Source: a virus (taxonomy: Duplodnaviria > Heunggongvirae > Uroviricota > Caudoviricetes). Taken from it: a stretch of DNA of 31,306 nucleotides. This document shows, piece by piece, positions 1 through 28,265 of this stretch. Positions within the stretch are counted from its first letter, which is position 1; every line of letters starts with the position of its first letter. The stretch lies in IMG/VR virus record IMGVR_UViG_2585427737_000015; one strand, given 5' to 3'. The notes under the pieces were generated by a model. That model was not told the origin of the DNA. It did no database searches and was given only the letters and a program-made list of their open reading frames with translations. Position numbers and translations under genes: made by a program.

Positions 1-1362
1 ATGTTTAAACCGGAACTCCTTTCCCCGGCGGGAACGCTGAAAAATATGCGTTACGCTTTCGCTTATGGCGCAGATGCTGTTTATGCGGGCCAGCCGCGTT
101 ATTCCCTGCGTGTGCGCAACAACGAATTCAACCACGAAAATCTTCAGCTCGGCATCAATGAAGCCCACGCGCTGGGGAAAAAGTTTTATGTCGTGGTCAA
201 CATTGCACCGCACAACGCCAAGCTGAAAACCTTTATCCGTGACCTGAAACCGGTGGTGGAAATGGGGCCGGATGCGCTGATTATGTCCGATCCAGGGCTG
301 ATTATGCTGGTGCGTGAGCACTTCCCTGAAATGCCGATCCACCTTTCGGTGCAGGCTAACGCCGTGAACTGGGCGACGGTGAAATTCTGGCAGCAAATGG
401 GCCTGACCCGCGTGATCCTCTCTCGCGAGCTGTCGCTGGAAGAGATTGAAGAGATCCGCAATCAGGTGCCGGATATGGAGATCGAGATCTTCGTTCACGG
501 CGCGCTGTGCATGGCCTACTCCGGTCGCTGCCTGCTCTCTGGCTATATCAACAAGCGCGACCCGAACCAGGGCACCTGCACCAACGCCTGCCGCTGGGAG
601 TACAACGTCCAGGAAGGGAAAGAAGATGATGTTGGCAACATCGTACACAAGTACGAGCCGATTCCGGTGCAAAATGTTGAGCCGACGCTGGGTATCGGCG
701 CACCAACCGACAAAGTGTTTATGATCGAAGAGGCCCAGCGTCCGGGCGAGTATATGACCGCGTTTGAAGATGAGCACGGCACTTACATCATGAACTCGAA
801 AGATCTGCGCGCCATCGCCCATGTAGAACGCCTGACCAAAATGGGCGTGCATTCGCTGAAAATCGAAGGTCGTACCAAATCTTTCTACTATTGTGCACGC
901 ACCGCACAGGTTTACCGCAAAGCTATCGATGACGCCGCTGCGGGAAAACCGTTCGATACCAGCCTGCTGGAAACTCTGGAAGGTCTGGCGCATCGTGGCT
1001 ATACCGAAGGTTTCCTGCGTCGTCATACTCACGACGATTATCAGAACTACGAATACGGTTATTCAGTTTCTGACCGCCAGCAGTTTGTTGGTGAGTTTAC
1101 CGGTGAGCGCAAGGGGGACCTCGCGGCGGTAGCGGTGAAAAATAAATTCTCCGTTGGCGACAGCCTTGAGCTGATGACGCCGCAAGGCAACATTAATTTT
1201 ACCCTTGAGCACATGGAAAACGCCAAAGGCGAAGCTATGCCGATAGCACCAGGCGATGGTTATACTGTGTGGCTCCCGGTCCCGCAGGATCTTGAGCTCA
1301 ATTACGCGCTGCTGATGCGTAATTTCTCCGGGGAAACCACGCGTAATCCCCACGGTAAGTGA
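1..1362 (+). CDS. yegQ: U32-family peptidase-like protein YegQ (tRNA hydroxylation protein TrhP), complete 453 aa
   Basis: ORF track 1..1362; sequence recognised as E. coli YegQ from memory, same length; ATG at 1, TGA at 1360-1362; chromosomal G+C. Synteny yegQ-cyaR-ogr matches the E. coli K-12 arrangement. Confidence 0.88.
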   Translation: MFKPELLSPAGTLKNMRYAFAYGADAVYAGQPRYSLRVRNNEFNHENLQLGINEAHALGKKFYVVVNIAPHNAKLKTFIRDLKPVVEMGPDALIMSDPGLIMLVREHFPEMPIHLSVQANAVNWATVKFWQQMGLTRVILSRELSLEEIEEIRNQVPDMEIEIFVHGALCMAYSGRCLLSGYINKRDPNQGTCTNACRWEYNVQEGKEDDVGNIVHKYEPIPVQNVEPTLGIGAPTDKVFMIEEAQRPGEYMTAFEDEHGTYIMNSKDLRAIAHVERLTKMGVHSLKIEGRTKSFYYCARTAQVYRKAIDDAAAGKPFDTSLLETLEGLAHRGYTEGFLRRHTHDDYQNYEYGYSVSDRQQFVGEFTGERKGDLAAVAVKNKFSVGDSLELMTPQGNINFTLEHMENAKGEAMPIAPGDGYTVWLPVPQDLELNYALLMRNFSGETTRNPHGK

Positions 1363-1393
1363 TTAATTTCGATTATTTTTCCCGGATGGAAAA

Positions 1394-1439
1394 TTCTTAG
1401 AAACCGATCACATACAGCTGTATTTATTAAGGTTATCAT
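1394..1439 (+). promoter_or_regulatory. Putative cyaR promoter: CRP-like half-site TCACA (1408-1412, within a 22-bp window centred about -42) and -10-like TATCAT (1434-1439)
   Basis: Position relative to the inferred cyaR 5' end at 1447; right CRP half-site is perfect, left half-site is poor (TTAGA). CyaR is known to be CRP-dependent. Read by eye only. Confidence 0.3.
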
Positions 1440-1446
1440 CCGTTTC

Positions 1447-1533
1447 GCTGAAAAACATAACCCATAAAATGCTAGCTGTACCAGGAACCACCTCCTTAGC
1501 CTGTGTAATCTCCCTTACACGGGCTTATTTTTT
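1447..1533 (+). ncRNA. cyaR: CyaR (RyeE) Hfq-dependent small RNA
   Basis: Sequence GCTGAAAAACATAACCCATAAAATGCTAGCTGTACCAGGAACCACCTCCTTAGCCTGTGTAATCTCCCTTACACGGGCTTATTTTTT matches remembered E. coli CyaR; ends in a stem-loop plus U-tract. Confidence 0.85.
1507..1533. other. Prophage attachment-site core (attL or attR): 27-bp P2 att core AATCTCCCTTACACGGGCTTATTTTTT
   Basis: Exact reverse complement of the P2 core AAAAAATAAGCCCGTGTAAGGGAGATT as I recall it; lies at the 3' end of cyaR immediately before phage gene ogr, as expected for ogr-att-int topology. Confidence 0.75.
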
Positions 1534-1596
1534 ACGTACAACAAATTGAAATAAAAGGATTTATTTCTGGTCACGTCCATATATTGACCACATCGA

Positions 1597-3591: not shown

Positions 3592-6036
3592 TTAACCGTC
3601 ATGCATCATGCTGGCACGGGCGCGCGCACGTTTATCCCGCTCGTATTTTTCGAGCGCATCCTGTAACTGGCGGTCGAGCTGTATCCCCGGCGTAGTACCG
3701 CCCGTCAGGCTGATGTGATATTCGTTTTTACTCTGGTCCACATAAGAGCGGCCAGCCGGTGCCGTAACCGGCTGATAAGCCTGATAGCCTGCATAAGAGC
3801 TGGTCGCCGGAATATAACCACCGCTGCCATACGTGGCGGCTTGAGTTCTGGCGGCGGTCTGGTCAAGTGTGTCTGACTCTTTGTTGATAACACCGAGTTT
3901 TTCCAGTACCCAGTCAATTCCGCTGCGCAGTTTGTTGAACGCATTAAGCGGCAGCATCAGCGCGTCAGCCAGTGCCTGCCCGAACATGACGCCAGTATCA
4001 CGGCAACGGTTCAGGGTGTCCTGGGTGGCTTTGACCGGGGCAATCAGGTTTTTAAACCACTGCCACGCGGCCTGTAACTTTTCGCCCAGCCAGTCAAACA
4101 CCGGCTTAAGTGGCGTGAACAGTTCCCCCACCGGCGCAAATGCCGCTTTCAGCCCTTCCATCACACCGCCAAAGAATGCGCTGACAGGCTCCCAGTATTT
4201 ACGGATAAGCAACGCCCCGGCGACAATGGCGGCCACCACGGCCACAACCGGCCAGCTAATCGCCCCGATGGCGGTCATAACAGCACTGCCAACCGTCGTG
4301 AAGACTGCCCCCATTGCGCCTGCTGCCGCGATGATGGCATTGATGCCAGTGATAACCGGCCAGGCTACAAGACCAATGGCACCGATGATGCCAATAAGCG
4401 CCAGCGCGCCACCGACAATGAGGCCGATGGTTGACGCCAGTGATTTGTTTTTCTGGATCCAGCCGTCGAGTTTTAACACATACTTTGTGGCCGTCTGCGT
4501 GAGCTTACGCAGTGCGCCTTCCTGCTGGTCAAACAGGTCAGTCCCCACCGCTTCATAAGCGGACTGAAACTCCTTAAAGTCACCGCCGAGGTTGTCCTGC
4601 ATGATTTTAACCAGCTCTTCCGTTTTACCGTCTGAGGCTTTCAGTGTAGCGGTCAGTTTGTCCAGCTTTCCGGTTGAGGCGGCAGTCATCAGCACGGCGG
4701 CGGCTGAACTGGCCTCCTCCCCGAAAATGGTTTTCATATATTCAGCCTTCTGAGACGTTCCCAGCTTGTGTTTATCAAAGCTGGCCTGAATCTCTTTCAG
4801 AATGGTGAACAACGGACGCATATTTCCCTTTTTGTCCGAGGTTTTAACGCCAAGCTCTTTGAGTGCATCCCATGCTTTTCCAGTCGGTGCCTGTAATCGG
4901 GTGACAACGGCACTGCCTCCCGTACCCGCCATTGACCCCCTAATTTTTGTCATGCAGCGCACCTGTCATGGCCGCTGCCTGTTCAAGACTTACACCTGCC
5001 GTCCTCGCAACCGGACCGAGGTAAGTCAGTGCATCACTGAGTCCCTGAAAATCAGCCGCCGACTTATTCATCGTTGCCGACAACACGTCGCCCACATGGC
5101 TGACATCATCATTTGAAAGCTGAAAGGCGGATTTCATCCCCAGCAACAGGGCGCGTTTTCTTCCATCGTGCGATGATTCGCCAGTGCCATATTCAGCGTG
5201 ACCGGCGTTGCCGCCTGAATAGCCGCAGCATCTCCACCCGCTTTCGCAATGATAATCTGCGCACCGGCCGCATCATCCGCTGAGGCGGCGGTATTGTCGC
5301 CGAGCTGGCGCGCCTGTTTGCGGAGCGCGGCCATTTCGGCGGAATCTTTTGCCACACCGAGCACGGCCTGCAATTCTGAGTTTTTCTGCGCAAACTCATA
5401 ACCGGGCATCAGCAGCTTAACTCCGGCCATCGTTCCCGCCGCCGCAATCCCCACACCGGCAGCGCCCACTGAGGCCATATTTCCGGCAAGTTCTTTTCCT
5501 GCCTGATAACGCTGTTTGACTGCGTTAAGTTTTGCCTGTTGTGCACTGACACGCGCCAGCGCGTCACGCTGCCGGTTAAGCTGTGCGGTGGTTTCACTGA
5601 TACGGTTTTTCAGTCCCTGCTCATCATGTGCAAGATTGCGGGTATTAATTCCCACAACGGCCAGTTCCCGCTGCTGGCGTTTAACGGAATCCGTCAGGCG
5701 GTTATATTTCGCCTGTAAGTCCTCCGCCGCACGCTTCGCGGATTCCAGCACTTTCGCCTGAGCACGTGTCGGACGTTCGGTGTTTTTAAACTGTGTGGCA
5801 AGGGCTTCGGCCTCCTGCCGTGCCTTTTCAAGTGCATGACCAGTCACGGCGAGCTGTGCGCTGGTCTTGCGAAATCCCTCAATACGGGATGCGTGACCGT
5901 TCAGCTCGCGCAGTGATTTTTGTGTTTCCCGGATATCCCCCGACAGCGATTTGCTCGCTGTGCGGATGGATTTAAACGGGCGGGATGCCTGGTCAACAGC
6001 CCTGAGCAATACCTGTAATTTTACATTGTTACTCAT
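3592..6036 (-). pseudogene. T: Tail tape-measure gene T, 815-codon span, interrupted by two compensating frameshifts
   Basis: Three abutting minus-strand ORFs: 5134..6036 (300 aa), 4940..5146 (68 aa, other frame), 3592..4962 (456 aa, back in the first frame). All three read as tape-measure sequence (Ala/Gly-rich hydrophobic core). Frame changes sit at a C-run (plus-strand GGG 5149-5151) and an A5 run (plus-strand TTTTT 4944-4948). Confidence 0.8.
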
Positions 6037-8831: not shown

Positions 8832-9824
8832 TTATGCTAGAGTTGAATATTCTCCATTTCCTCGGTCGGTGAGTGTTAATTCGCGGCCATTTTCTGTAAA
8901 TGTAATGGCATCCAGCAGGCTTTTTCCTGTTACAGCTATACCATATCCAAGGTTATCAATCTTTGAACTGTCCTCAGATGATATTGGTATTTGTACAAGC
9001 ATACCAACAACAAAGCCGTATTTGTTAATTATAGGGCCACCGCTATTCCCCCCCTTAACCCTAGCATTGAATAATAAAAAGTCTTGTGAATCTAAGTAAG
9101 AGTGACCAGAACCAACAATTCGCCCCTTTGACAGTCGGACAAACGAATTTATATGCGAAACGTCATATAACTTTAATGCATCAAATCCTGGAATGGGTGG
9201 AAATCCTATTGATAAAATTTCATCCAGTACCGAGGCTTTGGTTGAGACCTTAAGTGGTTGAATATTATCTTCATTCGGAATGGTTGTGAAAACTAAAGCG
9301 ATATCAATACGTTCATCGTTAGATACAAAGATTTTATGTATTGGTAAAGCCTCACCACCAGCTCTAAGTATCCTGATACTCTTCATGTCTTCAATAACAT
9401 GTCTGGCTGTAAATATCGTGTGGTTATTCCCAACAATAAAACTAGTACCAAGATCATGTGAACCATCACTTTTTTCAACAACAACAGGTAAAACGGAAGG
9501 ACTAAGGCGGTCTATGATTGACTCAAATCCATCAGCTATAAAATCATACTTTCCATATTTCGCATCTGATTCATTGAAATTCGGTGCGAAATAGCAACGG
9601 TCCAAAAGAGTATGTCCTGAAGATAATTCCATTAAAATACCTTCAGTTGCTAGCTTTTCACAATTGCGTATTAACTTCATCATATCGAGAGTATTTTCCC
9701 ACTCAGGTTTGAGACGGGTCAGGCTCTCAATTGTTTTTCTCTCTTTTACGTTATCGTTTTCCGGTTTGTCATAAAAATATTTCACTATTTCTGTTGGTGT
9801 TACATATGTTTTTTTTATAGTCAT
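8832..9824 (-). CDS. Cargo gene at the P2 Z/fun locus: N-terminal domain of unknown function fused to a trypsin-like (chymotrypsin-fold, S1/Trypsin_2-type) serine protease domain; 330 aa from ATG, 348 aa if the upstream GTG is used
   Basis: ORF 8832..9878. Motifs GTSFIVGNNHTIFTARHV (His160), ERIDIALVF (Asp192), VKGGNSGGPI (Ser279), track numbering, with triad spacing typical of DegP-like proteases. No Shine-Dalgarno before the GTG at 9878; a weak one before the ATG at 9824. AT-rich relative to the flanking phage genes. Confidence 0.7.
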   Translation of the reverse strand: MTIKKTYVTPTEIVKYFYDKPENDNVKERKTIESLTRLKPEWENTLDMMKLIRNCEKLATEGILMELSSGHTLLDRCYFAPNFNESDAKYGKYDFIADGFESIIDRLSPSVLPVVVEKSDGSHDLGTSFIVGNNHTIFTARHVIEDMKSIRILRAGGEALPIHKIFVSNDERIDIALVFTTIPNEDNIQPLKVSTKASVLDEILSIGFPPIPGFDALKLYDVSHINSFVRLSKGRIVGSGHSYLDSQDFLLFNARVKGGNSGGPIINKYGFVVGMLVQIPISSEDSSKIDNLGYGIAVTGKSLLDAITFTENGRELTLTDRGNGEYSTLA

Positions 9825-10217
9825 TTTTGTACCCGCGATGACGTTATTCCATATATTTTTCTTTGTAGAAAATATCACTATTGCTGGTAAATGTTAAGTT
9901 CAGTGCTCGCACTAAAGCTGGATGATCAACGTCGCCCTCGTATGGAAATCAGGTAAGATTCATGTCTACTTGGGGTCTAGGGTAGACAGCATAAAAACGT
10001 ACGATAGCGTTCGATTGGCTCTCCCCCCCGCCTATAAACCATGAGGTTGATAGGGTAGTATCGTTAGGCAATAGTATACATGTAAGTATCCAACCTAATT
10101 GGTCTTGAGATTTCTAACTAACGTGTCGTTATGTCCGCTCCTGGCACAGAGCGGACTGTCAGATTAGGCTTTACTCTGTTCTATAGGTATGTAAGCTCAC
10201 ACAAGAGTTCATACAAC

Positions 10218-14444: not shown

Positions 14445-14792
14445 TCAACTCACAGGGATGGTTAACGAAAGTGGCTGGCCGGTGTCGTTGTGCTGGCCGG
14501 TTAACGTGACCGTCATTCGCCCGTCAAAACTGCGCTCAGTGGTGACGGATGACAGGGTGACGCGGGGTTCCCATTTCAGCACCGCCATGTAACAGGCGAC
14601 CTTAATCTGCAACTCAAGCGCCGGGGTCTGCGGCTGGTCAATCATTGACGCCAGCAAGGAGCCGTAATCACGACGCATCACCCGTGAGCCGACTGGTGTG
14701 CGCAGGATATCGCCGATACTCTGGCTGATATGCTCGAGGTCAGTGACCGTCAGGCCATCACTGCGATTCATTCCGAGATAACGCGCTGTCAT
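14445..14792 (-). CDS. W: Baseplate protein gpW (115 aa)
   Basis: ORF track; P2 length and order. Confidence 0.85.
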   Translation of the reverse strand: MTARYLGMNRSDGLTVTDLEHISQSIGDILRTPVGSRVMRRDYGSLLASMIDQPQTPALELQIKVACYMAVLKWEPRVTLSSVTTERSFDGRMTVTLTGQHNDTGQPLSLTIPVS

Positions 14793-15424
14793 AGAGGACT
14801 CCCGGTTGTGCCGCCGCTGTCGCCGGGGTGTTTATGGGTATGCAGTACCTTACCGTTTGATGAGAGTTCACCGCCGGTGTGTTCAATGTTGCCGCGCATC
14901 GTCCCGCCCTTCTGCACTTCCAGCGTGCCGGTAATCAGCCTGTTGGTGCAGACCACCTCCGGGGTGTCCAGGGTGACGCGGGTTGATGCTTTCACCATGA
15001 CCACCGGCACCGTGGCAGTAACAGAATCAGAAGCCGTCACGCTGGCCGTTTTAATTCCGCTTACCGTGAGTGCACTGGTTTCGGGTTCATATTCAATCAC
15101 CGCCCCGTCAGGGAAACGGATATGCAGGGCATCCGCCGACACAGACGGCGAGGGGTTATCGCCGGAATAAATCCCCGGCAGAACGAACGCCGTGTCGAGT
15201 TCACCACCCACGGCCAGAATCAGCACCTGTTCCCCCACGGAAGGTGCCCACCATGTGCGCGAACGTCCTGCGCGATGGGTCAGCCACTGAAGCCAGTCGG
15301 TGCACATGCCGCCGGTCTGCACGCGGCAGCGACCGGCGTTAAGGTCGGTTTCGACGATAATGCCGGTGCGAATCATGTTGCGCAGTGCGCGCGCGAGTTC
15401 CTGAATATTTGCGAGAGTGTTCAT
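14789..15424 (-). CDS. V: Baseplate spike protein gpV (211 aa)
   Basis: ORF 14789..15442; start moved to the internal ATG (MNTLANIQELARAL...) to match the 211-aa P2 gpV; overlaps W by 4 nt. Confidence 0.8.
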   Translation of the reverse strand: MNTLANIQELARALRNMIRTGIIVETDLNAGRCRVQTGGMCTDWLQWLTHRAGRSRTWWAPSVGEQVLILAVGGELDTAFVLPGIYSGDNPSPSVSADALHIRFPDGAVIEYEPETSALTVSGIKTASVTASDSVTATVPVVMVKASTRVTLDTPEVVCTNRLITGTLEVQKGGTMRGNIEHTGGELSSNGKVLHTHKHPGDSGGTTGSPL

Positions 15425-15507
15425 GCGTGTGAGATTGCACAATATATAAAAGTTATGCTATCTGGATTCATTTGTAGAACTACCAGACAACATTCAAGGA
15501 GAGCGTA

Positions 15508-16293
15508 ATGGTCAGCTATAATGTGACTAATGTGTGGGGGCTAATCGTTTTTTTCCTTTGTAGCTTTGCAGTATTAGCATTTTTTAGCTTTGGTAAAAGT
15601 AACCTTATGAGGCTTATTGCACATTATTTCAATTTTGGATATTCAGACAAAAAATTAAAAAGACTTGACCGCGAGTGGCGCGACATTCAACTATTTAAAA
15701 TAATTAACGGAATCAATGTATCAGGCATTGAAAATGTGAGAATGATACAGCAGGGACTGATTGATGGAAAACTAAAAACATCGTATTTTTTCCTTACTCG
15801 CATCTGGGGTGACATAACAAAACCACCACACATAATTAAAACAACAATTGTAATTCTGGCCAGTATTATTTATATTCTCTTCGCATGTTATATACACAAC
15901 AAACAATCCGCTATAGTAAGAGATGCCATAGGCATACCATATAAAAATATGATGTACTATGTTTATAGTGACAAAGTTCTTTTATCCTTCAAAAATAAAG
16001 CAGTTGAATTTAATAAAACTTATAGCCTTGCCGATTGCAAGAGACTGCAAAACGTATTTATAAAAGACACACTTCCTGAAATCGCCTGCAATAAGCTCTT
16101 ACAGCTAAACGAGGAGGACTCCGAATGGTTAAGCCAGGAGATTAAAGATAATAACAGTCACAAAAAAGCATTATTAATACTATCCCTCGTCTATTTCACT
16201 TCAGGTCTGGTTATATTCCTGTCATATACAAAATTCTTTTACGCCAATAAGAAGGTTTTAGAATACAAAGCATCAAATAAAAATCACTCATAA
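15508..16293 (+). CDS. Cargo gene at the P2 orf30 locus: AT-rich predicted integral membrane protein (261 aa, about 3 transmembrane segments), function unknown
   Basis: ORF track; Shine-Dalgarno AGGAG 8 nt before the ATG; hydrophobic stretches at about residues 9-29, 113-133 and 221-241; opposite strand to the flanking late genes; low G+C by eye. Confidence 0.65.
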   Translation: MVSYNVTNVWGLIVFFLCSFAVLAFFSFGKSNLMRLIAHYFNFGYSDKKLKRLDREWRDIQLFKIINGINVSGIENVRMIQQGLIDGKLKTSYFFLTRIWGDITKPPHIIKTTIVILASIIYILFACYIHNKQSAIVRDAIGIPYKNMMYYVYSDKVLLSFKNKAVEFNKTYSLADCKRLQNVFIKDTLPEIACNKLLQLNEEDSEWLSQEIKDNNSHKKALLILSLVYFTSGLVIFLSYTKFFYANKKVLEYKASNKNHS

Positions 16294-16301
16294 ACCTCTA
16301 A

Positions 16302-16332
16302 ACATTGAGCGCCCAGCATGGCCGCTCAATGT
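16302..16332. terminator. Hairpin between convergent genes (cargo membrane protein and S), probable bidirectional terminator
   Basis: Perfect 10-bp stem ACATTGAGCG / CGCTCAATGT (16302-16311 and 16323-16332) with an 11-nt loop; followed by a T-containing tract on the plus side. Confidence 0.45.
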
Positions 16333-16364
16333 TTAATTGCGCATCAGCCTCTGCCTGGATAAAA

Positions 16365-16817
16365 CTAACGCTCAAGGTGAGCCAGGATAATCTCTTCAAT
16401 CATCTGCACATCCTCACAGGTAAAGCCGAGCAGAGGACGCGCCGGATAATCAATTTTCTTACCGTCTTTCCGGGTTTCTTCCGACAGACCGAACTGATGC
16501 ACACTGGCTATTTTCGGTGACTTCCCGCCGTAAAACTCCATTGATGCCTGTTCAGGGCTGGCGCGGATATGCAAAAAACGACTGGTGATAAGTTTCGCAA
16601 ACATTTTTCGCTTAACGCGACCGGTCTTTTTTCTGGCGCTCTGCTGCTGGCGTGGTGCGTAGGGTGTGCCGTCCGGGGCTTTCTGTGCCATCACCCGGCG
16701 CTGCTGACTCTGCCGCAGACGTTTCGCCAGTTCGGCGCTCAGTCGCCGACGCCCTGACGGTGACAACGATTCAATCAGTCCGGTCAGCCGGTCTTCAAAA
16801 CGCTTAAACTCATTCAT
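16365..16817 (-). CDS. S: Tail completion protein gpS (150 aa)
   Basis: ORF track; P2 length and order. Confidence 0.85.
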   Translation of the reverse strand: MNEFKRFEDRLTGLIESLSPSGRRRLSAELAKRLRQSQQRRVMAQKAPDGTPYAPRQQQSARKKTGRVKRKMFAKLITSRFLHIRASPEQASMEFYGGKSPKIASVHQFGLSEETRKDGKKIDYPARPLLGFTCEDVQMIEEIILAHLER

Positions 16818-17810: not shown

Positions 17811-18223
17811 GGTTCCCGCCCCTCAAAACACTGACGGCAGGCCGTACGTATCAGCCGGAAGAACACCGACGCCACGAGATAAATCAGCGCGGTAAAAATC
17901 CACCCGGCAGCGACCAGCGAGATAAATGTCGCCACCATCACCACCAGAGCCGCCGCCCGTCTGCGCCACGGCACCGGCTGCAAAAACAGCGACGTGACAA
18001 TCTTCACGGCCAGCGATTCCGGTGGCAGCTCCCGCCCGTAGCGTTCAAGTACATACTCCGTGGCATACACGCCGACACCACCGGCAACCACACAGATAAC
18101 CGTCACCAGAATCGCCCAGGTGGCGACAAAACTGACGGCCACGCTCTGCGGGTAAATCAGGGACAGTGCCAGCATCAGCGCCAGCGACACGTTCAGCATC
18201 AGTGAAAGGGATAATTTCTTCAT
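17798..18223 (-). CDS. lysA: LysA, membrane protein of the lysis cassette (141 aa)
   Basis: ORF track; multiple hydrophobic segments; P2 length and order. Confidence 0.75.
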   Translation of the reverse strand: MKKLSLSLMLNVSLALMLALSLIYPQSVAVSFVATWAILVTVICVVAGGVGVYATEYVLERYGRELPPESLAVKIVTSLFLQPVPWRRRAAALVVMVATFISLVAAGWIFTALIYLVASVFFRLIRTACRQCFEGREPCQG

Positions 18224-18237
18224 GGTGTTTACTCCGT

Positions 18238-18735
18238 TTAAGCCGGTACGCCGCCAGCGGTACGCCAGACGGTGACCAGTTTTTCCAGTGAATGCTCACG
18301 CTGACCGTAACCGGCACCCGGCAGGGACGCCCAGATATTGCGACAGCGTGAAATAGCGCGCTCAATGCGTCCCGCCCGGATGTCATCCAGTGCACCGCGT
18401 TCGCGGATCAACTGAATGGCGAGCCTGTCCTGTGACAACGGACTGAAATCCGGCAGGGCAAGCTGTTTGCGGTAGTGCGGCCAGAACAGGTAAAGCTGCT
18501 GATAGCGACCGGATGCCGTGGACTTTTCACCGCGACGGTTAAACACCTTCGCCGGTCGGCCATGCGCGAACGGGTGGTCACTGTAGTCGGTGAAAATTTC
18601 CGGCTTCCCGTCCAGTCCGGTGACTATCACGTCATAGCCCCGGTTTTTCGTCAGCGGATGATTCGCCGTCCCTTCGGACACGGCCAGCATGTCGAGAAAG
18701 GCGGCAATATTCTGATGCGTGTTAATTACCGGCAT
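18238..18735 (-). CDS. K: Endolysin gpK (165 aa)
   Basis: ORF track; P2 length and order after holin Y. Confidence 0.85.
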   Translation of the reverse strand: MPVINTHQNIAAFLDMLAVSEGTANHPLTKNRGYDVIVTGLDGKPEIFTDYSDHPFAHGRPAKVFNRRGEKSTASGRYQQLYLFWPHYRKQLALPDFSPLSQDRLAIQLIRERGALDDIRAGRIERAISRCRNIWASLPGAGYGQREHSLEKLVTVWRTAGGVPA

Positions 18736-19016
18736 TACGGTTTCCCCCTGCCCTTAAAGCGGCGCTGAATGGCAATCTCAATCACCTGATAACCGGCGAT
18801 ACCCAGCATGGAGCCAATGCCGCACACCGCAGGCAGTGACATGTCAGGAAACTGCACCAGAACAACACCGGCAACCATCGAGACAAAACCACCGAGCAAC
18901 ATGCGCCCGATAAACAGACGCGGGGTGATGGGTTCACCACCGGCAAGCACCTTGCCGACAACAATCAGCACCCCAATCATGAAAAGCGACAGGACGCTTT
19001 TTTCTTCTGCTGTCAT
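18735..19016 (-). CDS. Y: Holin gpY (93 aa)
   Basis: ORF track; small protein with transmembrane segments; P2 length. Confidence 0.85.
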   Translation of the reverse strand: MTAEEKSVLSLFMIGVLIVVGKVLAGGEPITPRLFIGRMLLGGFVSMVAGVVLVQFPDMSLPAVCGIGSMLGIAGYQVIEIAIQRRFKGRGKP

Positions 19017-19019
19017 GCG

Positions 19020-19223
19020 TTACTCCCACAGATTGACAGTTTCAGCCACGGGCGCGGTCTGAACGTCGGGCAGTTCGACGGCGGTGCCGTGTGGCAGCAC
19101 CGCACCCAGTTCAGACAGTCCCGGATTTGCGGCGAGCACGGTCTCAACCACGCCCTCAGTGCGCCCGTAATACCGGACACAAATGGCGTCGAGCGTGTCG
19201 CCCTGTAGCGCAAAGGTCTTCAT
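19020..19223 (-). CDS. X: Tail protein gpX (67 aa)
   Basis: Internal Met of ORF 19020..19292: MKTFALQGDTLDAICVRYYGRTEGVVETVLAANPGL... matches P2 gpX; ATGA overlap with the L stop. Confidence 0.8.
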   Translation of the reverse strand: MKTFALQGDTLDAICVRYYGRTEGVVETVLAANPGLSELGAVLPHGTAVELPDVQTAPVAETVNLWE

Positions 19224-26048: not shown

Positions 26049-28265
26049 ATGGAACTTAGATTAAAAAATGTTACCAGTTATAAGAAAGACGCCTTCACAA
26101 TACTGAATCTTGAAAAAAGAGTAAACATACTATACGGCCAAAATGGTTGTGGCAAATCTACCATTTCAAATTATTTCTACGACTCTACACACACAGATTA
26201 TAACGAGTGTGAATGTACCCTTCTTGACAATTACAAACCTCTTGTTTACAACACTAAATTTATTGAAGATAATTTCTACAATGCACAGGAACAAAAAGGT
26301 GTTTTTACATTAAGTAAAGAAAATGCAGATATTGAAAAACAATTAATTAAAAAAGAAGCAATTAAACAGCAACTTACAGAGCAATATAGACAAAAAAAAG
26401 GAGTGTTATTGAAATTAGAAGCAGAAATGGAAAAAAAAGAAAATGAATACATCGAATCGATCTGGAAAAAAACAGAACCAATCAGAAACTCTGTACTAAA
26501 AATCTTAATGAAAGGTAAAGTTGGCTATAAAAGACCTTTTTTTGAGATGATAAAATCATCCTCACCAATCACCTTTATTAATTTAAATGATATAGCAAAA
26601 GAATACTCTATACTATTAGAAAATAGAAACAATGAAACCGCATTAATAACTCCTTTACACCCATATACCCCATCAATTGATGATGTAAATACATTAGCAA
26701 CACCTATAATAGATACAAGCAATAGCTATTTATCAGAAACCATTAATAAACTTCATAATCTTGACTGGGTAAAAAAAGGTAAAGAACATTATTTAGACGG
26801 TTCTACATGTCCGTTTTGTCAGGAAAAAACTATTAGTCGCGAATTTTTAAATGCCCTTAAATCAATATTTGACGAAAGTTATTCAAAGAAAGTAAAACAG
26901 CTCTCAGATATAAAGTCAGTTTATGAGAAAAATACCATATATCATTTTAACGAAATACAAAACAATATATCATCATGTGCACTAATCAATGAGAAAGATA
27001 AAGAGATCATTATTTCCAATATTAAAATATTGCAAAACATTGCAGAAAAAAATTTAATAAACATTATTGATAAGATCAACAATCCATCAACATGCGTTAC
27101 ATTAGAAATTGATAAAGAACTAGAAAATCATGTTCAGGAAAGCATAGACGCTGTTAACAAAAAAATAAGAGACATAAATGATAAGGTTAAAAAACTCAAA
27201 GAGTATGAGAATAAAATCGGAAAACAAGTTTGGGGGGCTCTCCATGCTTTTTGCAGCGATGATTTAGAGAATTTATCCAAACACAAAGAAAAATTCTTTG
27301 ATATCAAAAAGAAAGTTCATGATGAATTAAATAATATTGAGCAACAAGGAAAAGAAAATAATCTCACAATAAAAGCATTGCGAGATAAAATATCTAACAT
27401 TGATTCTACGATAGACTCAATAAACACCCATTTAAAAAATCTAGGGATCTCTGGTTTTTGTATTGAAAAACATGCAGAAAGAAAAGATATGTACATTATA
27501 TCTCGACCAGGGCATACAAAAAACCAAAATGTTTATAGATCTCTTAGCGAAGGTGAAAAAACACTAATAACGTTTCTTTATTTTTTAGAGTGCTGTAAAG
27601 GTAAAACCGATAAAAATGATACCGATAGCAGGGATATTTTTATTGTTATTGACGATCCAATATCTAGTCTATCGCAAAACTATGTCTACGACATCGCATC
27701 AATTATTCATCACCACATTATAAAAAATGAATTAACAAAGAAGGTATTAATCCTTACTCACAATCTTTATTTCTTTCATGAACTTATTAAGCTATCTCCT
27801 AAAAGCAGAGAAGACAAACTATTTAAGAAAAACTATTATCTAGGTAGAGTAACGAAAAATGATTTTAGTATAATTACTGAAATACAAAAAAACAGCATAC
27901 AGAATGAATATCAATCTTTGTGGCAAATATTAAAAGATGCAAAAGATGGCAAAGCAAACAAAATCATAATACCTAATATTATGAGAAACATACTAGAATA
28001 TTATTTTGCATTTGTTCATAGAACAGATGCTCTACAAGATGAATTAACAAAGTTGGCACGCGACGATAGCAACAGTGATTTCAAAGCATTCTACAGATAC
28101 ATTAACAGAGGTTCTCACTCTGATGCGGTAAATATTACTGATATGGGCGACATAGACCCAGATAAATACCTAAAACAATTGAGAACAATATTTTCAGCTA
28201 CTGGTGACGAAATGCATTATTTAAAAATGATGGACGAACTAGAAGAGGAGAACGTTACCGCTTAG
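26049..28265 (+). CDS. Cargo gene at the P2 tin/old locus: 738-aa ABC/SMC-type ATPase with coiled-coil insert and CxxC zinc-hook-like motif plus a C-terminal putative nuclease domain; RloC/PrrC-like (AAA_13-type) candidate anticodon nuclease
   Basis: ORF track; Shine-Dalgarno GAGG before the ATG. Walker A ILYGQNGCGKST (aa 27-38), CPFCQ (aa 254-258) within Lys/Glu-rich coiled-coil sequence, signature-like LSEGEK (499-504), Walker B IFIVIDDP (530-537), LTHN (569-572), and C-terminal R646-x3-E650 ... H690 resembling the PrrC Arg-Glu-His triad. Strongly AT-rich by eye. Confidence 0.6.
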   Translation: MELRLKNVTSYKKDAFTILNLEKRVNILYGQNGCGKSTISNYFYDSTHTDYNECECTLLDNYKPLVYNTKFIEDNFYNAQEQKGVFTLSKENADIEKQLIKKEAIKQQLTEQYRQKKGVLLKLEAEMEKKENEYIESIWKKTEPIRNSVLKILMKGKVGYKRPFFEMIKSSSPITFINLNDIAKEYSILLENRNNETALITPLHPYTPSIDDVNTLATPIIDTSNSYLSETINKLHNLDWVKKGKEHYLDGSTCPFCQEKTISREFLNALKSIFDESYSKKVKQLSDIKSVYEKNTIYHFNEIQNNISSCALINEKDKEIIISNIKILQNIAEKNLINIIDKINNPSTCVTLEIDKELENHVQESIDAVNKKIRDINDKVKKLKEYENKIGKQVWGALHAFCSDDLENLSKHKEKFFDIKKKVHDELNNIEQQGKENNLTIKALRDKISNIDSTIDSINTHLKNLGISGFCIEKHAERKDMYIISRPGHTKNQNVYRSLSEGEKTLITFLYFLECCKGKTDKNDTDSRDIFIVIDDPISSLSQNYVYDIASIIHHHIIKNELTKKVLILTHNLYFFHELIKLSPKSREDKLFKKNYYLGRVTKNDFSIITEIQKNSIQNEYQSLWQILKDAKDGKANKIIIPNIMRNILEYYFAFVHRTDALQDELTKLARDDSNSDFKAFYRYINRGSHSDAVNITDMGDIDPDKYLKQLRTIFSATGDEMHYLKMMDELEEENVTA

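Follow-up and report, generated by a model that had tools for sequence, protein, structure and literature searches.

Introduction

Small multi-helix proteins of the inner membrane, encoded by single accessory genes of phages and prophages, mediate superinfection exclusion; T4 Imm, P22 SieA and HK97 gp15 are examples. Old, Tin and Fun of phage P2 are not known to be multi-pass membrane proteins. The genes old, tin and fun(Z) are AT-rich cargo of classical variable regions of P2, and orf30, the subject of this study, is likewise. The TO, Z and orf30 regions have been named as the three foreign-gene regions of P2-like phages (PMC3091744), and phage R18C carries a different 741-bp open reading frame (ORF) at the orf30 position (PMC6823313). 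The P2 record (AF063097) places orf30 between genes S and V, on the opposite strand, and annotates it as 'nonessential' with no phenotype given. It is thus among the few genes of this classic model phage without an assigned function; the literature found on it consists only of tables giving it as 'unknown' and of its naming as a variable region. Two papers on P2 defence hotspots (Rousset 2022, PMC9122126; NAR 2026, PMC13586616) make no mention of orf30, the latter noting only, among the tail genes, a hotspot 'downstream of GpL'. Here, we analyze the gene between V and S of a P2-like prophage in IMG/VR virus record IMGVR_UViG_2585427737_000015, a stretch of 31,306 nucleotides referred to below as the window. 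New in this study are a link to the DUF6216 family, the finding of intact IMG/VR copies under selection, and a survey of the cargo carried between V and S.

Identity and distribution of orf30

The V-S interval of the window spans exactly 15425-16364, the bounds also given in the preliminary description of this DNA. It is 98.6% identical to bacteriophage P2 over 937 of 940 bases (megablast against GenBank phages; 21 records matched), and the feature beneath the P2 match is 'orf30: Orf30'. The encoded protein and P2 Orf30 (AAD03281.1) share 255 of 261 residues with no gaps, and the PHROG family phrog_2407 (function unknown) matches residues 1-261 of 261 with an E value of 3e-148. The ORF is phage P2 orf30 itself, already known, and not a different gene at the place of orf30. 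The preliminary description had presented it as an AT-rich membrane protein gene in the orf30 hotspot, with the caveat that it may simply be the orf30 equivalent. The position and the description stand, and the caveat proved right; the DNA identity, together with the nonessential annotation, removes the novelty of the gene.

The window and P2 copies agree in length, in their S-V slot and in antisense orientation, and the terminator hairpin that follows the gene agrees in position and length. Only one base differs in an aligned 126-base stretch (15405-15530) covering the upstream control region. Five of the six protein substitutions (T113I, I121F, F125L, K132E, and A135V) lie in or just after the second predicted transmembrane helix (TM2), and the sixth (I141T) in the following loop 2.

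Of 5426 complete E. coli genomes, 464 (about 9%) carry the orf30 sequence at ≥90% identity; they do so at 482 places, and all copies are annotated as hypothetical protein. P2-type V genes occupy 1812 places in 1583 E. coli genomes, which puts orf30 in roughly a quarter of P2-type E. coli prophages. Its carriers include clinical and animal isolates, among them enterotoxigenic (ETEC) and avian pathogenic (APEC) strains, and several ETEC strains have a copy that is 100% identical to that of the window.

Conservation and selection

A search of IMG/VR located 78 orf30 loci with 71 complete copies. All 71 are uninterrupted; they comprise 54 nucleotide and 46 protein alleles. V and S flank the gene in all 70 loci with both flanks present. 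Pooled ratios of nonsynonymous to synonymous substitution (dN/dS, Nei-Gojobori) are 0.46 for the whole gene, 0.35 for the predicted cytoplasmic loop, 0.24 for the loop 2 domain, predicted to be periplasmic, and about 1.2-1.5 for the outer helices TM1 and TM3. The neighboring genes in the same 54 prophages have values of 0.15 (V) and 0.08 (S). orf30 is under purifying selection and evolves several-fold faster than its structural neighbors, the usual signature of accessory cargo. The intact state of every complete copy, the dN/dS of the whole gene, and the retention of length and layout among homologs identify it as a real gene and not a chance frame. It is an AT-rich accessory gene acquired horizontally, the G+C content (GC) of the ORF being 0.32-0.35 (about 33%) and that of the flanks 0.57-0.61 (about 58%).

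Protein family and predicted topology

A word-indexed search of 5.8 billion proteins returned five clusters only, and an exhaustive phmmer search of 1.84 billion representatives gave 35 matches, about 20 of them full length. Full-length homologs have 239-271 residues, are 17-38% identical, and keep the three-helix layout. The Orf30 family is small, and belongs to Enterobacterales and P2-like prophages wherever the organism or context could be identified. Its most conserved region is the first loop (mean pairwise identity 34%, against 13-23% elsewhere), which contains the best-conserved motif, DxQLF(K/R)xxNGINV (DxQLFKxxNGINV). Residues G68, G87, C194, and I212 are invariant, and Q61, N70, N247, and K254 nearly so. 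Exactly two Cys residues, aligned at 174/177 and 194, are present in loop 2 of all 21 aligned members.

A Pfam scan of these 21 members showed that nine are touched by DUF6216 (PF19723) at E values up to 1, and one member, P0026, matches this family over its full length with 28.9 bits, above the gathering threshold of 27.3 bits. Orf30 is therefore treated here as a probable divergent branch of the DUF6216 superfamily, linked transitively and at the superfamily level only. Two other candidates were discarded: an NCBIfam match to the last helix (E 0.018) is noise, scoring 15 bits where the cut-off is 120, and a search of PDB sequences with the family profile found NDH subunit helices only, at E values above 0.1.

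The DUF6216 protein WP_000115390.1, from a P2-like prophage remnant in E. coli B/BL21 and E. coli C, may be compared with Orf30 in layout. Like orf30, its gene is AT-rich (33% GC) and of similar size (268 residues), and lies in the same V-S slot, antisense and adjoining V. Three hydrophobic helices (24-42, 90-108, and 207-225) are present, and a DC...C-x-LL Cys motif between TM2 and TM3 aligns with Orf30, although the statistics of the alignment are weak. In contrast to Orf30, the first loop is shorter and does not contain the DxQLFKxxNGINV motif; the protein covers only the C-terminal two thirds of the DUF6216 model. Genes of this type occur in 111 further E. coli genomes, including that of E. 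coli C, the classical P2 host. In BL21-AI (L165), the annotated DUF6216 gene (18404-19210, minus strand) and the convergent S gene (18016-18462, plus strand) overlap by 59 bp at the 3' end of S, which leaves no room for a terminator between the two, unlike orf30.

Distant Orf30 homologs are also found outside the late region, in Serratia sp. D1N4 (L002 8001-8768) and on a metagenome contig (L004 8001-8750). One is located beyond the integrase of a 186-like prophage, at its edge, and the other in a prophage remnant, next to a fragment of gpR. The neighborhoods are similar, both genes adjoining chromosomal ecotin/PAP2 genes. The existence of these distant homologs outside the late region indicates that the Orf30-family gene moves between cargo sites.

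As the preliminary description had proposed, Orf30 has three hydrophobic segments (about 9-28, 109-130, and 220-240; 19-residue Kyte-Doolittle mean >2.0); features resembling a cleavable signal are absent. Lys and Arg residues number zero at the N-terminus, 14 in loop 1 (29-108), 12 in loop 2 (131-219), together with 12 acidic residues, and five in the C-terminal tail. This charge distribution and the conserved loop 2 Cys pair favor a topology in which the N-terminus would be outside, the 80-residue loop 1 cytoplasmic, and the short basic tail inside. The 90-residue loop 2 would then be periplasmic, with a probable disulfide bond between Cys177 and Cys194. An AlphaFold2 model built from a 13-sequence alignment (mean predicted local distance difference test score, pLDDT, 81.6; predicted template modeling score, pTM, 0.64) comprises three long helices, with loop 1 modeled as three short helices and loop 2 as a four-stranded sheet followed by helices running into TM3. 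A faint, repeated likeness to claudin/TARP-like proteins, in which a bundle of membrane helices bears a sheet facing outward, does not reach significance.

The V-S slot as a variable cargo site

To place orf30 in context, 80 gpV loci were surveyed on bacterial contigs from one genome per species; S and V were located in 60. The slot is empty in 22 of these, V and S being 59-76 bp apart with a GC of about 0.6. The other 38 slots hold 0.8-3.1 kb with a GC of 0.32-0.48, against about 0.57 in the flanks, and ORFs on either strand. A family hidden Markov model detected Orf30-family genes in five occupied slots, always antisense and abutting V, in an Enterobacter metagenome-assembled genome, Pseudescherichia, an unclassified enterobacterium, Rosenbergiella, and Buttiauxella. 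This makes Orf30 the most frequent cargo family among the 38.

The remaining cargo is diverse, and six of the 20 slot cargo proteins scanned match PADLOC models. Cargo proteins include Ppl (PHP plus ATPase), PDC-S06 in a Citrobacter youngae prophage (L081 2098-4701; E 9e-117), an NsnA/GmrSD_N protein (E 3e-42), a RelA_SpoT/PDC-S33 protein, HEPN_Apea, a KAP/STAND NTPase, DUF4062 (twice), Mrr_cat/PDC-M36A, an ion-channel-domain protein, and a fimbrial-domain protein. The slot of Pseudescherichia vulneris encodes a 490-residue caspase-domain (Peptidase_C14) protein (L042 2556-4028, plus strand), and a different membrane protein, of 221 residues and four helices and assigned to the Pfam family 8xMP (octameric membrane protein; E 1e-40), is encoded on the minus strand of two contigs (L010 4234-4899 and L017 4218-4883). 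The V-S slot is a true variability hotspot rich in defense-type genes.

Several details of individual slots were recorded. In P. vulneris, the Orf30-family gene (4104-4868, minus strand) lies directly beside the caspase-domain gene, and in three loci (L014, L160, and L161) additional cargo separates the Orf30-like gene from S. The two 8xMP genes are antisense in the slot; one contig is labeled Vagococcus, probably reflecting enterobacterial contamination, and the other is from Yersinia alsatica. Small membrane proteins thus recur at this position (Orf30 and 8xMP). Among four empty slots (L007, L026, L034, and L038; about 4925-5000), three have a GC-rich hairpin (GCCGCCGG...CCGGCGGC) just upstream of the V start.

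Bounded by the O-operon terminator and the V promoter, the slot is the sole operon boundary within the late block, and insertions are likely tolerated here because no late transcript is broken. Filled and empty slots differ over the whole S-V spacer, the empty version being unrelated in sequence to the one with orf30 even in the V promoter region. This suggests that cargo is exchanged through recombination in the flanking genes and not inserted at a fixed site.

Defense-type genes are also present in the remaining two classical P2 variable regions of the window: P2 itself has old/tin and fun(Z) where the window prophage has a PDC-S06 and a serine-protease gene. In the old/tin (TO) region, between the portal gene Q and the replication gene A, a 29-32% GC island contains a 738-residue ORF (26049-28265, plus strand) that matches the candidate single-gene defense ATPase PDC-S06 from end to end (E 4.8e-254) and has a PrrC-like C-terminal part. 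Given the PDC-S06 relative in the C. youngae V-S slot, the same type of cargo moves between P2 hotspots. At the fun(Z) position, between the tail fiber assembly and sheath genes, a 38% GC island contains a 348-residue ORF (8832-9878, minus strand). An identical prophage in ETEC has it annotated as a peptidase of the S1 family, and two PADLOC models, RT-Protease and LmuA, match its residues 133-297 with their protease modules (E 7e-13 to 5e-10).

A prophage of E. coli 120899 (NZ_CP025916) has a 100% identical orf30 interval and different TO cargo (L006 30497-31580), a DUF2975 protein and a Panacea-domain protein that look like a toxin-antitoxin pair. Identical orf30 cassettes therefore travel with different cargo elsewhere in the prophage. 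The tail fiber gene of this prophage is annotated as pseudogene fragments. At the left end of the window (1-1550), likeness to P2-like phage genomes starts only at about 1507-1547, and this end therefore seems to consist of host chromosome; fieF and cpxP flank the prophage in the matching ETEC genome.

Locus layout and expression

orf30 occupies 15508-16293 on the plus strand and encodes, from an ATG start, a protein of 261 residues (30.4 kDa, pI 9.5) with three predicted transmembrane helices. A Shine-Dalgarno sequence of its own, AAGGAG (15496-15501, plus strand), can be read 6 nt 5' of the ATG. The slot is bordered on the left by the baseplate spike gene gpV (14789-15424, minus strand; 211 residues), with which the V late operon begins, and on the right by the tail completion gene gpS (16365-16817, minus strand), with which the O late operon ends. 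orf30 is antisense to both late operons. The gpV frame is listed as 14789-15442 from an upstream TTG; the coordinates used here run from the P2 gpV ATG, the start being transferred from the P2 annotation. Every element given in the preliminary description was confirmed.

The hairpin separating orf30 from the convergent S gene (16299-16335; P2 annotation, L001 3372-3408, and folding) is stronger than the 10 bp first ascribed to it. Beginning five bases past the orf30 stop, it has 17-nt arms (16299-16315 and 16319-16335) that pair at 16 of 17 positions, including a run of 13 perfect pairs, and a 3-nt loop. Its folding energy is -22.4 kcal/mol on the plus strand and -25.9 on the minus strand (z about -5), and none of 200 shuffles was as stable. 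The P2 record annotates the same hairpin as a 'putative rho-independent terminator for O operon', and it is placed to terminate transcription arriving from either direction. An Rfam scan of the interval scored the hairpin as a sub-threshold microRNA only, which was judged to be chance.

The divergent region between V and orf30 (15425-15507, 83 bp; defined from the sequence and the P2 record) contains the V late promoter. The binding site of its activator, Ogr, was transferred from the P2 record (L001 2539-2566, offset +12927) to 15466-15493, 14 nt short of the orf30 ATG. With the Ogr site this close, the orf30 transcript must start within the 83-bp region or inside V. A scan of the plus strand upstream of orf30 for the sigma-70 consensus gave no 9/12 match; by eye, a TATAAA is visible at 15445-15450 with no -35 element. 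Alignment of the upstream regions of two divergent orf30 relatives (L160 and L162) and P2 showed conserved blocks, which could equally be the V promoter. The P2 record sets the start of V-operon transcription at the first base of the V coding sequence (L001 2497; window 15424), and in the window the V ATG has no preceding Shine-Dalgarno sequence (CTCACACGCATG, coding strand). Given these two features, the mRNA from which V is translated may have no leader, or almost none.

The suggestion that antisense orientation would allow orf30 expression from the prophage, independently of late transcription, is not supported by this arrangement, nor by what is reported for the DUF6216 relative in the same slot of BL21-AI. 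For that gene, a 2026 preprint reports an H-NS peak in chromatin immunoprecipitation sequencing and transcription that is up only in an hns stpA double mutant (10.64898/2026.09.05.749240). By analogy, P2 orf30 itself may be silenced by H-NS.

Discussion

It is tentatively proposed that Orf30 is a membrane-level exclusion protein that blocks entry and is normally silenced. Encoded by a single gene, it would benefit the lysogen, most likely by interfering with the entry of an incoming phage genome at the inner membrane or periplasm, and would be kept largely silent by H-NS owing to the 33% GC of its gene. Such silencing would explain why decades of P2 work have assigned it no phenotype. The defense-rich cargo of the slot in other prophages gives indirect support to the idea of lysogenic conversion or superinfection exclusion raised in the preliminary description. 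With a little more reserve, it may be speculated that Orf30 and the DUF6216 superfamily form an unrecognized family of single-gene, membrane-embedded anti-phage proteins, silenced by H-NS, and the commonest cargo of a third, overlooked defense hotspot of P2-like prophages, between S and V.

A number of observations weigh against these proposals. To our knowledge, P2 lysogens have been screened for exclusion over decades, and all known phenotypes map to old, tin, and fun. Neither orf30 nor any DUF6216 protein is known to confer phage resistance. Orf30 matches none of the families of PADLOC-DB 2.0 at E values up to 10 and no PHROG family beyond its own phrog_2407, and Foldseek searches of the Orf30 model against PDB and BFVD returned nothing below E 0.05, with TM scores ≤0.23. 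The window Orf30 itself has no Pfam match, DUF6216 included, even at E values up to 10, and its resemblance to the BL21 DUF6216 protein is weak (hhalign E 0.005 over 46 columns, probability 7%; BLASTP E 0.12). Homology to the e14 protein YmfE (Kunado) was rejected, the two being unrelated (hhalign probability 0.1%). The predicted topology is based on hydropathy, charge counts, and the Cys pair. The argument from location is weak, as the slot also holds a fimbrial-domain protein and many unannotated ORFs. Finally, no phenotype is given for the BL21 DUF6216 gene in the preprint that describes its silencing (10.64898/2026.09.05.749240).

Lysogenic conversion need not concern defense, and Orf30 could instead alter host envelope physiology, stress tolerance, colonization, or competition. 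The frequency of the gene in clinical and animal E. coli (464 of 5426 genomes, ETEC and APEC among them) would suit such a role, as would the fimbrial-domain protein found in the same slot and the position of distant Serratia homologs at a prophage edge near envelope-related genes (ecotin and PAP2). Genes antisense to prophage lytic genes are, moreover, accessory loci of many kinds (PMC7067206). We nevertheless consider this unlikely: there is no domain or fold hinting at an enzyme, transport, or adhesin role, the recognizable slot cargo consists mostly of defense-type domains, and the family is tied to P2-like prophages, not to pathotypes.

The strong conservation of loop 1 raises the question of whether Orf30 acts within a doomed cell. 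As an abortive-infection effector, it would sit idle in the inner membrane until the cytoplasmic loop sensed infection, then oligomerize and depolarize or permeabilize the membrane, so that the cell dies before phage release, in the manner suggested for RexB-type and other transmembrane effectors. A loop with 34% mean identity against 13-23% elsewhere, in which G68 and G87 are invariant and Q61 and N70 nearly so, fits a sensor or partner surface; the defense-rich slot context applies equally here, and H-NS silencing of a relative suits a potentially toxic product. However, the conserved Cys pair, predicted to be periplasmic, and the dN/dS of 0.24 in that domain indicate that an important function lies outside the cytoplasm. 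A partner sensor gene is absent, orf30 is usually alone in the slot, three helices per monomer are uninformative on pore formation, and neither PADLOC nor Foldseek found homology to known membrane effectors. This mode of action is quite doubtful.

It is improbable that Orf30 is an accessory of the P2 lytic cycle, for example a membrane protein that adjusts the timing of lysis or aids tail or baseplate assembly or release, dispensable in the laboratory and made together with the late gene products or at about the same time. The gene does lie directly downstream of the lysis cassette and tail-completion genes and shares its 83-bp control region with the Ogr-activated V promoter, and the BL21 relative gives a holin-like match, although a faint and non-significant one (E 0.037). 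However, the Ogr dyad is centered about 55 bp from the V start and about 28 bp upstream of the orf30 ATG, which is the wrong geometry for activation of orf30. The base composition is foreign, orf30 adjoins no more than about a quarter of the P2-type V genes of E. coli, homologs also occur outside the late region, and with the slot empty in 22 of 60 related prophages the gene does not belong to the conserved lytic program. A functionless, AT-rich remnant tolerated at an operon boundary would fit the nonessential annotation, the missing phenotype, and the weaker constraint relative to V and S (0.46 against 0.15 and 0.08), but is very hard to reconcile with 71 of 71 complete copies being intact across 54 nucleotide alleles, with dN/dS values well below 1 in both soluble domains, and with an architecture, Cys pair, and motif kept down to 17% identity across genera.

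If Orf30 does exclude phages at the membrane, P2 gains a fourth exclusion gene, a membrane-acting family joins the defense catalog, and DUF6216 gains a function. The entry block proposed for Orf30 may be likened to those attributed to T4 Imm, P22 SieA, and e14 YmfE. As predicted for Orf30, YmfE is a small, multi-helix inner-membrane protein, encoded by a single accessory gene of about 31% GC that is reported to be silenced by H-NS; it differs in having four helices instead of three and in lacking a conserved Cys pair like that predicted to be periplasmic in Orf30. In the preprint on H-NS, YmfE is shown to act after adsorption and to block T5-like phages only once H-NS is removed (10.64898/2026.09.05.749240).

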